DNA of 34,955 nt from a virus: the UHGV virus genome UHGV-0055450. One strand, written 5' to 3'. Shown here piece by piece: positions 5,274 through 34,398 of this stretch. Position 1 is the stretch's first letter. The number at the start of each line of letters is the position of its first letter. A program made the translations under genes and the position numbers. The notes beneath the pieces are model-generated. The model did no database searches. It was not told the origin of the DNA and worked only from the letters and a program-made list of their open reading frames with translations.

Positions 5274-5569
5274 GCCGCGTCCCTCTGTCCATCAAGCTGA
5301 TCCGCCAGATCCCAGCGGGCGATAATTGCCATTGCCTCTCGCCGATAGGCATCCATCAGTTCTTCGAACTCAGGGCTGTCTTTAGCAGCCTCCAGTACTT
5401 CCTGACGAACGCCTTTGCCTGTTACAACGTCGAAAGTTGAGGACAGTTGATGAAGCCGGATGCTCTCAATCAGTTCAACTTGTCGGTCATATAGCTGTTC
5501 TGACAGGCGGTAGTCCTTGTCGAATGCCAGCATGATTTTTTGAAGATTTTTCTGCTGATTAACGTTCAT
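5270..5569 (-). CDS. Hypothetical early protein (about 99 aa)
   Basis: MNVNQQKNLQKIMLAFDKDYRLSEQLYDRQVELIES...; the ATG at 5569 is preceded by GGGAGGG; the stop overlaps the exonuclease start (ATGA). Confidence 0.45.
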   Translation of the reverse strand: MNVNQQKNLQKIMLAFDKDYRLSEQLYDRQVELIESIRLHQLSSTFDVVTGKGVRQEVLEAAKDSPEFEELMDAYRREAMAIIARWDLADQLDGQRDAA

Positions 5570-5571
5570 TA

Positions 5572-5724
5572 TCAGCCCTCCCATATCTCGTTATCGTTGG
5601 CCACATCGCGAGCTTCTTTGCTGACGAAAGCCCACTTAATACCTTCCTGTAAGGTGCGGAACTTCCAGCTCATGAATCCGCATGCAGTAACGCAGTACCA
5701 ACCGTTGATGATTTTCCACTGCAT
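5572..5724 (-). CDS. Hypothetical small Trp/Cys-rich protein (50 aa), first gene of the leftward early operon
   Basis: Hand-translated MQWKIINGWYCVTACGFMSWKFRTLQEGIKWAFVSKEARDVANDNEIWEG*; GAGGT sits 9 nt upstream of the ATG; below the length cutoff of the supplied ORF track. Confidence 0.4.
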   Translation of the reverse strand: MQWKIINGWYCVTACGFMSWKFRTLQEGIKWAFVSKEARDVANDNEIWEG

Positions 5725-15593: not shown

Positions 15594-15670
15594 TGGCGTG
15601 GCATGCAGGATTCGAACCTGCGACCAACCGCTTAGAAGGCGGTTGCTCTGTCCAACTGAGCTAATGCCAC
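15594..15670 (-). tRNA. tRNA-Arg (anticodon UCU), phage-borne variant
   Basis: Reverse complement GTGGCAT-TA-GCTC-AGTTGGACA-GAGC-A-ACCGC-CTTCTAA-GCGGT-TGGTC-GCAGG-TTCGAAT-CCTGC-ATGCCAC-G-CCA folds as a cloverleaf with a 7-bp acceptor stem, TCT anticodon and encoded CCA. Body resembles argU; stems differ. Confidence 0.85.
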
Positions 15671-31445: not shown

Positions 31446-32297
31446 ATGAAAAAAATAAATTTGTTTTTTGGCATAGTGCTTTCAATAGTCTCTGTAAATC
31501 CTACAGCTGCCAGTTCATTGCAATGCAATAAGGATAACTTTGATGCATGCAAAACGTGCGAACAATTATCAAAGGCTATCGACTTAAAAGAACCTAATCG
31601 TGGCGATTACTATAGAGGGGCTTTATGGAATGGGCTTTACGCCTCTTATGTAATTAATTGCCCTGTGGTTGCAGAGAAGTTACTGAGCCATGGTGCTATA
31701 CCATCATATGGCGGATATATGGGGTCTATGGGGGCGGTTCTGACAGGAAAATGGCCTCATAACAATGAATCAATAAATCTTTCATGGGCAGATTTGCTTA
31801 TAAAACATGGATTTGATGTTAATAGGCATACGGGGAATTATAAATCAGCTACTGAAGTATGGGCTATAGATAAAAAACAGATTGAATATAAGTCAGTTTT
31901 TGACAAGTTAATTCAATCCAGCGAAGTAAAACCACTCGATCCTTCAAGAAATTTAGAATGGTGTGCGTCTGAAGGGTATCGCTCAGTTGTCGTTTATTCC
32001 CTTAACTCATGTATAGAAAATGCTATAAAACGTTTGGATGACGGTGTTTCTTCAGCGTCTGATATTTCATCAGCAGCCGTAAATTCCTGTACTAGCGATG
32101 TAGAAAATTTCAATAAGCATTTGGCATGCAAAGCAGCTGTTAAAGAAAACTCTGATAAAGAGAGAAGCAACGTTTACCAGTTATTAACCAGTGATAGTCA
32201 AATGAATAAAAATGTTATTGATATGCTGAAGGAAAGAAATATTGAAACGGTTCTTGAATTTAGAGCTGAAAATCGATCAGCGAAAACTGCACAGTGA
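31446..32297 (+). CDS. Secreted Cys-rich cargo protein with possible ankyrin-like repeats
   Basis: Signal-peptide-like N-terminus MKKINLFFGIVLSIVSVNPTAASS; ankyrin-like segments VAEKLLSHGAIPS and ADLLIKHGFDVNRHTG; visibly AT-rich relative to flanking phage genes; own terminator. Confidence 0.6.
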   Translation: MKKINLFFGIVLSIVSVNPTAASSLQCNKDNFDACKTCEQLSKAIDLKEPNRGDYYRGALWNGLYASYVINCPVVAEKLLSHGAIPSYGGYMGSMGAVLTGKWPHNNESINLSWADLLIKHGFDVNRHTGNYKSATEVWAIDKKQIEYKSVFDKLIQSSEVKPLDPSRNLEWCASEGYRSVVVYSLNSCIENAIKRLDDGVSSASDISSAAVNSCTSDVENFNKHLACKAAVKENSDKERSNVYQLLTSDSQMNKNVIDMLKERNIETVLEFRAENRSAKTAQ

Positions 32298-32310
32298 TCA
32301 AACAGGCCGC

Positions 32311-32335
32311 TTTCGCGGCCTTGTTTTTAACGAAT
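32311..32335 (+). terminator. Rho-independent terminator for the secreted-protein gene
   Basis: AGGCCGC-(TTTC)-GCGGCCT followed by TGTTTTT. Confidence 0.65.
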
Positions 32336-32375
32336 GCCACCGCCGCCTGGGTGGGAATCCGCAGACACAAAAAAG

Positions 32376-32396
32376 CCCGCGCCGCGGGCTATTCTT
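32376..32396 (-). terminator. Rho-independent terminator for the convergent leftward gene
   Basis: Minus strand reads GCCCGC-(GGC)-GCGGGC followed by TTTTTT. Confidence 0.6.
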
Positions 32397-32829
32397 CTTC
32401 ATCATAAAAAAGCGGATTGTCGTTTCCATCTGATGAAAGGAAAGGTATGTGTTCTCTTGAAAATCCAACAACGACAATTTCATTATCATTTTTTGCATAA
32501 TGAATGCATTCATTAGAATGCATTCCGCCAGGGTTGAAATTTAAGTTAATGGTATAATTCTTAAATGTGTTTGGATACCATGTTGGCCCACAATGATAAT
32601 GCCAATAATTCTCTTGCTCATAATTGTCTGAGCCGGGAATTTTATCATGGTTATCATCAACCCACGATGGCTTGTTTTTTCCAACAAGCGCCCTTCCATT
32701 GGCAACATCTTCTAAAAACCTTTGTATGATTTTTATTTCATCGTCAGTAAGGAAAGGTCCGTCTACAGCGAAATGGGTGTTGCTTTCCCCATTTAGAAAA
32801 CTATTAGATATTCTAATGTTAAACTTCAA
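32389..32829 (-). CDS. Hypothetical AT-rich cargo protein (146 aa)
   Basis: TTG start with AGGAG 7 nt upstream; contains NYWHYHCGPTWYPNTF and an acidic C-terminus; convergent with the secreted-protein gene. Confidence 0.5.
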   Translation of the reverse strand: MKFNIRISNSFLNGESNTHFAVDGPFLTDDEIKIIQRFLEDVANGRALVGKNKPSWVDDNHDKIPGSDNYEQENYWHYHCGPTWYPNTFKNYTINLNFNPGGMHSNECIHYAKNDNEIVVVGFSREHIPFLSSDGNDNPLFYDEEE

Positions 32830-32849
32830 GACAAACTCCTAATGTGCTT

Positions 32850-33029: not shown

Positions 33030-33044
33030 TTACCTTTAAGGTAA
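33030..33044. promoter_or_regulatory. Operator palindrome overlapping the RBS of the 55-aa gene
   Basis: Perfect TTACCtttaaGGTAAtagtac; on the minus strand its half-site runs directly into the AGGAGG Shine-Dalgarno. Confidence 0.5.
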
Positions 33045-33115
33045 TAGTACGCTATTCACCCCCAGTCTGCAATCTGTACAGAATTATTTAAAGGCACGTC
33101 CCTGTGCCGCCGCCG

Positions 33116-33808
33116 TCAGAAGAACCCAGCCTTGTCGTTGATGTACTCCGCGTGTGTCTGGATATCACGCAGGCATTTGCTCACACCGACGATGTAGCAG
33201 AACATGGTGGTCAGCTCCGCCGCCGCGCCCGATACGTCGTGCCCGTCGTCCTGTAACTGGTTCAGCAGATTCATCAGCAGTGAGTTCTCCGTCAGGCCGA
33301 GAACACCAGACGGCGAATGAATCAGGCTGCGGTAGCCGGGCTTCAGCGGGGCGCTGTAGGTTTTGTTCTCTATCTTCATTGCCTGCATCACTGCTGATGC
33401 TGTGGCGTTTGCAACCTGGTCGGCAACCATCTTTATGCGTTCTTCCTGCGGGAGCGAGTTTTTAATGTAACTTCCGGTGCGGCGGATCTGAGGAAGAACC
33501 TCACCTGTAACCCATTCAAGAAATCTGAATGCTCTCGTTCCCTCAGTCATTGCCTCTTTGCAACGCAGAATAAGGATGTAGAGACCTGATTCTGAAACGA
33601 TGGATAGTTCTTGTATTCCACCAGGGGTCTGTATTGAATACAGCCCCTTTTTGTTCCAGCCTTTTTTATCAAGTTTTCTCGCTTGTGTAACATCAATATT
33701 CAAAGCATTGCACACATCTTTGGTGACAAACCAAGGTTCTCCGTCAATCATGAACATACGGATCTGGCAGGATGACTCAAAGGAAAAGATGGAAGGTTTG
33801 GTATTCAT
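33116..33808 (-). CDS. ant: Antirepressor with N-terminal Bro-N-like domain
   Basis: MNTKPSIFSFESSCQIRMFMIDGEPWFVTKDVCNALNI fits the Bro-N/antirepressor N-terminal pattern; ATG at 33808 with AAGGTGA upstream. The track ORF extends to 33853. Confidence 0.75.
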   Translation of the reverse strand: MNTKPSIFSFESSCQIRMFMIDGEPWFVTKDVCNALNIDVTQARKLDKKGWNKKGLYSIQTPGGIQELSIVSESGLYILILRCKEAMTEGTRAFRFLEWVTGEVLPQIRRTGSYIKNSLPQEERIKMVADQVANATASAVMQAMKIENKTYSAPLKPGYRSLIHSPSGVLGLTENSLLMNLLNQLQDDGHDVSGAAAELTTMFCYIVGVSKCLRDIQTHAEYINDKAGFF

Positions 33809-33962
33809 GGCGATCACCTTTGTAGTTAGGTTAATCACCACCGCTGAGACCAATCAGATGGTGGTGAACTGTGCAGAGTTGGTCTTACCGGCTACAAAGG
33901 AACCCGGCGCACCTTTCGGTGCCCCCACACAGCCCACCATAGAATAGGTGCGCTTTACACAT

Positions 33963-33981
33963 AAAAAAACCGCTTATGCGG
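33963..33981 (-). terminator. Weak rho-independent terminator upstream of ant
   Basis: Minus strand reads CCGC-ATAA-GCGG followed by seven T; short stem. Confidence 0.4.
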
Positions 33982-33994
33982 CATATGTGCCTCT

Positions 33995-34049
33995 GTAGTA
34001 ATCCGGGAGACCAATCCCGGCACTGGATTTTGCCAGTGCCCGATTACTA
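33995..34049 (-). ncRNA. Candidate structured regulatory RNA or attenuator between the two antirepressor genes
   Basis: Outer stem TAGTAATC / GATTACTA encloses two hairpins, GCACTGG-(CAAAAT)-CCAGTGC and CGGGA-(TTGGTC)-TCCCG, and is followed by the terminator at 33963-33981; no ORF. Confidence 0.25.
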
Positions 34050-34121: not shown

Positions 34122-34379
34122 TTATCTGGTTTGTTTTCGTAATTGTTCGGCACAATAGTCGAGATGTGTTTGCAGATCCTGCATAGACATCTGTGAGCTG
34201 GTGACGTAGTTAATCAGTGCAGTCAGTTCGGCAAGTGGGCCATCGACATTAAATCCATCCTTATCGAGATCCCGGAGTAATTTCATCAAGTGCGATCCCT
34301 CCACCAGTGACCTGACGCCTCCCGGCGTGTGAATCCTTTCGGTAAATCCGTCTTCCAGTGGATAGTGATACTGCTGCAT
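34122..34379 (-). CDS. Small protein homologous to the antirepressor C-terminal domain (about 85 aa)
   Basis: SHLMKLLRDLDKDGFNVDGPLAELTALINYVTSSQMSMQDLQTHLDYC aligns with the Ant C-terminus SLLMNLLNQLQDDGHDVSGAAAELTTMFCYIVGVSKCLRDIQTHAEYI; ATG at 34379 with GGAGAAG upstream. The track ORF extends to 34397. Confidence 0.6.
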   Translation of the reverse strand: MQQYHYPLEDGFTERIHTPGGVRSLVEGSHLMKLLRDLDKDGFNVDGPLAELTALINYVTSSQMSMQDLQTHLDYCAEQLRKQTR

Positions 34380-34398
34380 CTTATCTTCTCCATGCAAT

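Follow-up and report, generated by a model that had tools for sequence, protein, structure and literature searches.

Do two neighbouring genes that share an unusual base composition also share a function? The question is raised by UHGV virus genome UHGV-0055450, a stretch of 34,955 nucleotides that was analysed in full and is called the window below, in which two markedly AT-rich genes, orf283 and orf146, stand back to back. An earlier account made from the letters alone, referred to here as the sequence-only reading, had placed the two genes between the last ejection gene and the antirepressor region, a location that the gene map confirms, and had proposed the pair as a lysogenic-conversion, superinfection-exclusion or toxin/immunity module. 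On balance, the AT-rich stretch appears to consist of two independent accessory modules placed tail to tail: orf283, which codes for a predicted exported cysteine-rich protein, and an operon resembling type II toxin-antitoxin systems, which comprises orf146 and a short gene upstream of it, orf55.

Composition and co-occurrence of the two genes

The relationship between the two genes was examined in a survey of 5,426 complete E. coli genomes, among which orf283 was found in 106 and orf146, as part of orf55-orf146, in 77, with both in only nine genomes; the full 1.8-kb arrangement was likewise present in only nine. Since the two genes occur together so seldom compared with their separate counts, orf283 and orf146 do not form a functional pair, and the idea that they are a toxin and its immunity partner was ruled out on the same count. 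Indeed, orf55-orf146 is mostly carried by phages of the phiv142-3/HEMP4 type, which do not carry orf283. The convergent arrangement seen in the window is thus an accident of two neighbouring insertion slots, and what survives of the role first proposed for the pair is a candidate toxin module, not a unit of orf283 with orf146.

The low G+C content (GC) and the gene arrangement described in the sequence-only reading are both real. GC amounts to 0.370 in orf283 (0.289 at third codon positions, GC3) and 0.354 in orf146, compared with 0.481 in the preceding ejection gene and 0.489 in the window, and a windowed calculation places the lowest-GC 1384-bp window of the entire sequence precisely at positions 31446-32829 (0.381; mean 0.490, standard deviation 0.028). 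The list of open reading frames (ORFs), a terminator scan and RNA folding agree that the genes converge and that each has its own terminator (Table 1), with folding energies of -16.1 kcal/mol (z -4.36) for the terminator of orf283 and -14.6 kcal/mol (z -2.3) for that of orf146. Between the two terminators sits the remnant of a third gene. Compared with the sister prophages L002 and L003, the window has suffered a 193-bp deletion that removed most of a signal-peptide gene of 53 amino acids (aa), intact in both sisters and belonging to phrog_14503, “membrane associated protein.” Among the features by which phage morons are recognized, terminators, deviating GC and variable presence were all seen for orf283 and orf146; as for a promoter, none was found for orf283 and only a weak candidate for orf55.

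The orf55-orf146 operon

The short gene orf55, which the sequence-only reading overlooked, shares the strand of orf146 and precedes it by 20 nt, and judging from sequence comparisons the two quite probably constitute a toxin-antitoxin module: a toxin fold, a conserved pairing, a palindrome and autonomous mobility together make up the standard signature of the type II class. As regards the fold, the structural model of orf146 has that of RelE/ParE toxins. Because the match is one of fold only, sequence and profile tests not being significant, orf146 is filed in the RelE/ParE superfamily and in no member family; the earlier statement that it has no recognisable family holds for the sequence models searched and gives way on structural comparison. 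No RelE/ParE member-family match was returned for orf146 by a profile search of PDB sequences, and none of 96 scanned representatives of its family matches any Pfam toxin family.

The orf146 family, which corresponds to phrog_5954, a PHROG of unknown function, is larger than a quick search suggests, the 34 relatives retrieved by a word-indexed search rising to 116 in an exhaustive profile search of 1.84 billion representatives. These 116 representative clusters at 50 % identity extend over Enterobacterales, Pasteurellaceae, Neisseriaceae, Aeromonas and Vibrio, on prophages as well as on very small plasmids. Across 96 distant representatives, H77, H79 and H127 are invariant and K53 and Y111 nearly so. 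Relative to RelE and YoeB, orf146 has two insertions (approximately residues 55-74 and 80-107), one of which carries an invariant W-H-Y-H-C-G motif. When a hidden Markov model (HMM) of the family was compared with the toxins of E. coli K-12, YoeB ranked first, the similarity involving helix 2 and a G-K-N-K-P motif aligned with G-K-G-K-P. The equivalence of orf146 residues to the catalytic E46, R65 and H83 of YoeB is suggested by motif order only. The chances that orf146 is an RNase of the RelE/YoeB type are about even, with a small chance that it is instead a ParE-type gyrase poison or a non-catalytic binding protein built on the RelE fold.

Two further records contain relatives of orf146. In the GenBank entry of phiv142-3 (MN187550.1), the intact homologue at 5280-5720 is missed and “Orf10” is a 52-aa call in another frame. 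A homologue 41 % identical to orf146 occupies positions 1456-1887 of PQ189326.1, a 9.8-kb record named “Vibrio phage 10N.261.55.B9_PE002,” which is possibly a small mobile element.

The pairing was followed through 19 genome loci (18 of them true relatives), four contigs (L025-L028) and three plasmids (L037-L039). A co-directional ORF ends next to the toxin start or overlaps it in these 18 genome loci, the four contigs and the three plasmids, with the exception of locus L005, where the toxin start is ambiguous. In Enterobacterales the partners are homologues of orf55 of 55-76 aa, and homologous partners stand ahead of the toxin gene in Erwinia, Serratia, Pectobacterium, Klebsiella aerogenes, Proteus and on small plasmids; those of Pasteurellaceae and Neisseriaceae reach 160-210 aa and carry the orf55 motif in their C-terminal ~45 residues, and those of Aeromonas and Enterobacter adelaidei are short and not clearly homologous to orf55. 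The C-terminal motif shared by the partners reads [WY]xx[IVA][GAD]x[VI][ILM]L[GS]R ... [YF]xxGx[ST]x[DE].

Some of these loci are peculiar in other respects. An antitoxin would not usually have a hydrophobic segment at its N-terminus, as the 160-210-aa partners of loci L005-L020 do; these partners resemble orf55 only in their last ~45 residues. In Canicola haemoglobinophilus (L010, 4001-4426) and in a Neisseria metagenome-assembled genome (L020, 1596-2102), the orf146 homologue is split by a frameshift next to an intact partner, which may reflect either erosion of the toxin or an assembly error.

Upstream of orf55 lies a palindrome, TTACC-N5-GGTAA, which is the sole conserved block in front of the orf55 homologues of E. 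coli, Serratia and Pectobacterium and a candidate operator; in K. aerogenes a different palindrome stands at the corresponding place. It was found by eye and by alignment, and as its arms measure only 5-7 bp an inverted-repeat finder returned nothing on the region.

The mobility of the operon is apparent from the variety of its settings. In Uetakevirus-like prophages of E. coli, Serratia and Pectobacterium it always stands just downstream of ant, the Bro-N antirepressor gene, on the same strand and with no terminator between them. In the window, too, a terminator scan found none on the minus strand between ant and orf55, so that read-through from ant is also possible. With C4 antisense RNA and isrK control elements upstream of ant and only a weak promoter candidate for the operon itself, this arrangement could also be that of a regulatory accessory of an immI-like ant operon, in which a RelE-fold RNase made only together with ant would trim transcripts and tune the choice between lysis and lysogeny. 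Such a role is distinctly improbable, for orf55-orf146 also occurs where there is no ant: in Pasteurellaceae prophages, flanked by tape-measure and baseplate genes; in a Proteus contig, with replication genes alongside; in a prophage remnant of K. aerogenes; and on 3-kb ColE1 plasmids. Altogether it was found on 37 plasmids, many of them ColE1/Rop replicons of 2.6-4.6 kb carrying little else, in E. coli, Salmonella, Citrobacter, Klebsiella, Edwardsiella, Providencia and Aeromonas. The plasmids NZ_CP032420.1, NZ_CP084196.1 and NZ_MG212498.1 (L037-L039) bear an orf146 homologue of 44-48 % identity preceded by a 62-aa partner that is absent from the plasmid gene table. Since the module thus occurs in prophages, in a remnant and on 3-kb plasmids without any ant gene, it works autonomously.

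The site next to ant in turn accommodates other genes, and looks like an exchange hotspot for toxin modules. Exactly where the window has orf55-orf146, sister prophages hold other cassettes, and in four of five the PGAP annotation reads “YafO family toxin” (L002, L036, L032, and L035 in Klebsiella); these YafO-named toxins score only 19-23 bits on PF13957, below its cut-off of 25. In phage EC.W1-9 the site holds a gene for a DUF2335 membrane protein and a 108-aa gene. Counted over E. coli, Klebsiella and Serratia prophages, there are at least four other cassettes, mostly weakly YafO-like toxins of 170-185 aa, some of which include an overlapping upstream gene of 108-113 aa (L002 4283-4828; L036 6228-7053; L035 7118-7961; L032 7496-8053; L023 6283-7084). 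The possibility, raised by motif order, that orf146 is itself a divergent YafO was rejected as a conclusion and retained only as a lead (BLASTP E 0.25; hhalign probability <1 % against the neighbouring YafO-like family; HMM search against K-12 YafO non-significant).

As a toxin-antitoxin module, orf55-orf146 would work as follows. The orf146 protein would be a ribosome-dependent mRNA endonuclease, like RelE and YoeB, and orf55 would bind and neutralise it through its C-terminal motif. Either orf55 alone or the complex of both proteins would repress the operon at the TTACC-N5-GGTAA palindrome, although the binding of orf55 to this operator is a guess, orf55 having no recognisable DNA-binding domain. 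Loss of the prophage, or shut-off of host expression by an infecting phage, would then free the toxin and lead to addiction or to abortive infection.

Several results weigh against this proposal. The orf146 protein matches no toxin model of Pfam, NCBIfam or PADLOC; its similarity to YoeB comes down to one short motif (GKNKP against GKGKP) worth only 4.2 bits; and a profile-profile comparison with the neighbouring YafO-like family was not significant (probability <1 %). The promoter candidate is weak, falling below the threshold of a standard promoter scan, and no DNA-binding domain was recognised in orf55 with Pfam, PHROG, NCBIfam or PADLOC. If the proposal is nevertheless true, orf55-orf146 adds a toxin family and an antitoxin family that Pfam, NCBIfam and PADLOC do not cover. 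The ant-adjacent site, at which RelE-superfamily and YafO-like cassettes replace one another, would also offer a compact natural system in which to ask whether such cassettes serve addiction, defence or induction control.

The exported protein orf283

The other gene behaves in an altogether different manner. Homologues of orf283 in E. coli, Klebsiella, Serratia rubidaea and Morganella always begin 1-31 nt after an ejection gene coding for 1129-1131 aa. Compared with the window, orf283 and the 1129-aa ejection protein are respectively 85.5 % and 92.6 % identical in Klebsiella, 60.8 % and 78.6 % in S. rubidaea, and 41.1 % and 55.6 % in Morganella. As the divergence of orf283 tracks that of the ejection gene, orf283 has long been inherited with this ejection module. 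In every genus (L032, L033, L035 and the window), the GC of the homologue is 0.35-0.40, compared with 0.52-0.535 for the adjoining ejection genes; the composition of orf283 has not drifted toward that of its neighbours despite long joint inheritance and co-divergence.

This fixed position does not make orf283 indispensable. Among the 120 complete E. coli genomes with this allele of the ejection gene, 106 carry orf283; in the other 14, similarity breaks exactly at the stop codon of the ejection gene and other genes follow. In the one such genome inspected, a 146-aa cysteine-containing protein with a signal peptide (GC 0.32) and a 149-aa gene replace orf283, which is therefore dispensable or replaceable. 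Relatives with other ejection genes hold in the same slot a three-pass membrane protein of 94-118 aa or other membrane-anchored proteins, and most of the other proteins encoded in this slot among relatives are membrane proteins or secreted. The suspicion voiced in the sequence-only reading that the genes are variable cargo is consequently right as to their accessory and compositionally foreign nature and wrong in so far as it implies free shuffling, given that orf283 stays behind the same ejection gene; nor are the two conserved structural genes of all related phages, orf283 being absent from 14 of 120 prophages.

Concerning the protein itself, orf283 begins with a predicted Sec signal peptide, a call based on heuristic n-h-c analysis of 16 homologues. 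All 16 have kept, despite sequence divergence, an n-region with one to three K/R residues, an h-region with a Kyte-Doolittle value of 2.1-3.0 and small residues at positions -3 and -1, the latter immediately preceding the first invariant cysteine in the alignment. Residues 1-24 are modelled by AF2 with a predicted local distance difference test (pLDDT) score below 50. No second hydrophobic or membrane segment follows the signal peptide, and a lipoprotein was ruled out, there being no lipobox. The protein has eight cysteines, all invariant in the family; the signal-peptide-like N-terminus and the many cysteines first noticed by eye are accordingly family traits.

Two domains are distinguished, an ankyrin-like N-domain (~53-160) and a helical C-domain (170-283). 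Two motifs of the LLxxGAxxN ankyrin type (LLSHGAIPS and LLIKHGFDVN) are readable and the structural matches of the model are ankyrin proteins, in keeping with the ankyrin-like segments of the sequence-only reading, though no Pfam Ank match accompanies them; the N-domain is thus predicted to be ankyrin-like by fold only. A PDB profile search returned designed ankyrin repeat proteins (DARPins) at E about 1 only. The family, phrog_6118 (function unknown), has no Pfam, NCBIfam or PADLOC match and is narrow, with 22 cluster representatives whose named sources are Escherichia, Klebsiella, Serratia, Morganella and Providencia; UniRef labels one cluster “Ankyrin repeat domain-containing protein.”

From the export signal, the invariant cysteines, the ankyrin-like fold, the linkage and co-divergence with the ejection gene and the envelope location of most other occupants of the slot, we infer a periplasmic factor aimed at the matching ejection machinery. 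In this proposal orf283, soluble and disulfide-bonded, would reside in the periplasm and bind another protein of the cell envelope. Its likeliest target would be a component of the matching ejection machinery when phages of the same kind come in, so that superinfection would be excluded much as it is by T4 Spackle (Sp); this periplasmic protein binds and inhibits the lysozyme domain of the cell-puncturing protein gp5 of the incoming phage (PMC7677548). That orf283 is such a protein-binding factor, functionally like Spackle, is put forward tentatively, as a possibility and not as a probability. The more specific version, in which it would be the podovirus counterpart of Spackle on an ankyrin scaffold, matched to the T7-gp15/16-like ejection proteins of its own phage and co-evolving with whichever of them it blocks, ejection channel or transglycosylase, is rather doubtful.

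A part in the virion itself would account for some of the same observations. The gene closes the internal-virion operon, starts 1 nt behind the stop codon before it and has no promoter of its own; it is syntenic and co-diverges with the ejection genes in four genera, and the isolated phage EC.W1-9 retains it. On these grounds orf283 might code for a structural part of the ejection machinery or for a factor in its assembly, either a fourth internal-virion protein or a chaperone, with a hydrophobic N-terminus serving as a membrane-insertion segment or processed leader and not for export. This is unlikely in the face of phiV10, phiv142-3 and HEMP4, which do without it, and of the 14 of 120 E. coli prophages whose ejection gene is 99 % identical and yet is followed, from a breakpoint exactly at its boundary, by genes other than orf283. 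A periplasmic protein would suit both the eight invariant cysteines and the canonical n-h-c signal, with its small residues at -3/-1, and the GC of 0.37 differs from the 0.48-0.52 of all neighbours.

A third explanation looks beyond the bacterial cell. Phage proteins combining a signal peptide with ankyrin repeats, the ANKp of “Ankyphages,” reduce phagocytosis and inflammatory signalling (bioRxiv 10.1101/608950), and orf283, which joins a predicted signal peptide to an ankyrin-like fold as they do and whose hosts are all gut- or animal-associated Enterobacterales, could be a lysogenic-conversion effector secreted to act on eukaryotic cells. Its likelihood is very low: Sec export in E. coli ends in the periplasm, and there is no evident way for orf283 to cross the outer membrane; its strict synteny with the ejection genes, and their joint divergence, suggest that its partner is phage-directed; Pfam Ank matches, by which the ANKp proteins were discovered, are lacking in orf283; and no promoter was found that would express it in a lysogen.

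The Spackle-like reading has its own difficulties. No conserved or convincing promoter precedes orf283 in the four genera, even when the 3′ end of the ejection gene is included; orf283 is probably transcribed with the late operon, and such late expression fits poorly with exclusion by a lysogen. Nothing physically links orf283 to the ejection proteins. The ankyrin assignment depends on a model with a mean pLDDT of 76 and a patchy N-domain, the Foldseek E-values are no better than 0.035, and neither orf283 nor 15 homologues gave a Pfam Ank match, even at E <= 1. Should this reading be true, the place behind the last ejection gene would serve generally as an “envelope immunity” locus, in which the alternatives to orf283 (the three-pass membrane protein and other secreted cysteine proteins) would achieve the same end by other means, and a protein that blocks ejection by related phages would provide a handle on the poorly understood trans-envelope channel of T7-like ejection proteins.

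Gene neighbourhood and comparison with known systems

The prophage that makes up the window resides in E. coli and is a Uetakevirus-like podovirus, of the phiV10/TL-2011b/epsilon15 type and not P22-like. Its nearest isolated phage is EC.W1-9 (86 % coverage, 97.5 % identity), which shares its ejection genes; those of phiv142-3 are different. The 1129-aa ejection protein has only a weak Pfam match, to DUF919; upstream of its gene are encoded a 915-aa protein with PHROG matches of transglycosylase and endolysin type, and a 191-aa protein of the T7_gp14 family (PF24072). On the other side, the elements found directly upstream of ant indicate by sequence that its control is antisense (C4) control of the P1/P7 immI type. 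The antirepressor C-terminal domain (phrog_450) that terminates the 245-aa Ant protein also exists as a stand-alone copy further upstream, and a tRNA gene lies elsewhere within the prophage. A literature search for the proteins of the window by accession or PHROG id found no papers.

Table 1. Features of the window discussed in the text, in order of position.
Feature	Position	Strand	Description
tRNA gene within the prophage	15597-15670	-	Rfam, 73.3 bits
Last internal-virion (ejection) protein, 1129 aa	28055-31444	+	T7 gp16-like; phrog_342, “internal virion protein with endolysin domain”
orf283, 283 aa	31446-32297	+	Predicted exported Cys-rich protein; start codon ATG, 1 nt beyond the 1129-aa gene
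Predicted Sec signal peptide of orf283	31446-31514	+	Residues 1 to ~23; likely cleavage TAA|S
Intrinsic terminator 3′ of orf283	32304-32321	+	Closes the late/internal-virion operon; 7-bp stem (6 GC pairs), then TGTTTTT
Deletion scar	32335-32365	-	Last ~12 codons of the 53-aa secreted accessory gene (phrog_14503); from alignment with sister prophages
Terminator of orf146	32374-32390	-	Two-way stem-loop overlapping the orf146 stop codon; 7-bp stem (6 GC pairs), then TTTTTTG
orf146, 146 aa	32389-32829	-	Predicted RelE/ParE-fold toxin; TTG start
Shine-Dalgarno sequence AGGAG	32836-32840	-	7 nt before the orf146 TTG start; read from the sequence
orf55, 55 aa	32850-33017	-	Predicted antitoxin; phrog_8607; RefSeq WP_000125783.1
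Palindrome TTACCTTTAAGGTAA (TTACC-N5-GGTAA)	33030-33044	.	Candidate operator, between the putative -10 and the Shine-Dalgarno sequence of orf55
Promoter candidate TTGCAG-17-TACTAT	33044-33072	-	Weak, sigma70-like, for orf55-orf146; 7/12 consensus matches
Bro-N antirepressor gene (ant)	33116-33853	-	PF02498, E 2e-13; Ant of 245 aa
C4 antisense RNA	33857-33944	-	Rfam, 78.6 bits; directly upstream of ant
isrK Hfq-binding small RNA	33963-34039	-	Rfam, 74.7 bits; upstream of ant
91-aa ORF	34122-34397	-	Stand-alone antirepressor C-terminal domain; phrog_450, E 4.7e-48

Toxin-antitoxin modules and envelope proteins are both common as prophage accessory genes, and neither finding is surprising in kind. 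The sequence-only reading likened the place of the two genes to that of sieA in P22, and as the order of ejection genes, accessory envelope gene(s), ant region and tailspike is shared with the P22 sieA/immI region, the positional analogy is fair. It does not extend to the protein: SieA is an inner-membrane protein, whereas orf283, its signal peptide apart, lacks any membrane segment and belongs to a PHROG of unknown function. The control of ant differs too, being of the C4-antisense type in the window and not by Mnt/Arc as in P22.

A tentative functional parallel is T4 Spackle, which like orf283 is phage-encoded and helical and has a signal peptide (predicted in the case of orf283). The target of Spackle is a lysozyme domain, and orf283 is genetically tied to ejection proteins with transglycosylase and endolysin PHROG matches. 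No homology between the two has been shown, however, and orf283, about three times the size of Spackle, carries an ankyrin-like domain and is encoded in a late operon, Spackle being the product of an early gene. From ANKp it differs by an additional cysteine-rich helical domain and by its fixed synteny with ejection genes. The family of orf283 is uncharacterised and combines features in an unusual way, and the protein is a rare case of a predicted exported, ankyrin-like phage protein that is genetically locked to DNA-ejection genes.

For orf55-orf146, the appropriate comparison is with RelBE, YefM-YoeB, DinJ-YafQ and HigBA, whose toxins measure 84-104 aa, compared with 146 aa and two insertions in orf146. 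No sequence model of any member family of the RelE/ParE superfamily matches orf146, and orf55 has neither the ribbon-helix-helix (RHH), helix-turn-helix (HTH) or Phd/YefM domain nor any other known domain of antitoxins. The YafO toxin of YafN-YafO (PF13957) shares with orf146 an H-x-H strand followed by a hydrophobic-Y strand, in the same order, but no significant sequence or profile similarity. Toxin-antitoxin modules of this sort are very well known as a class, to which orf55-orf146 probably adds a new form that has so far gone without annotation.

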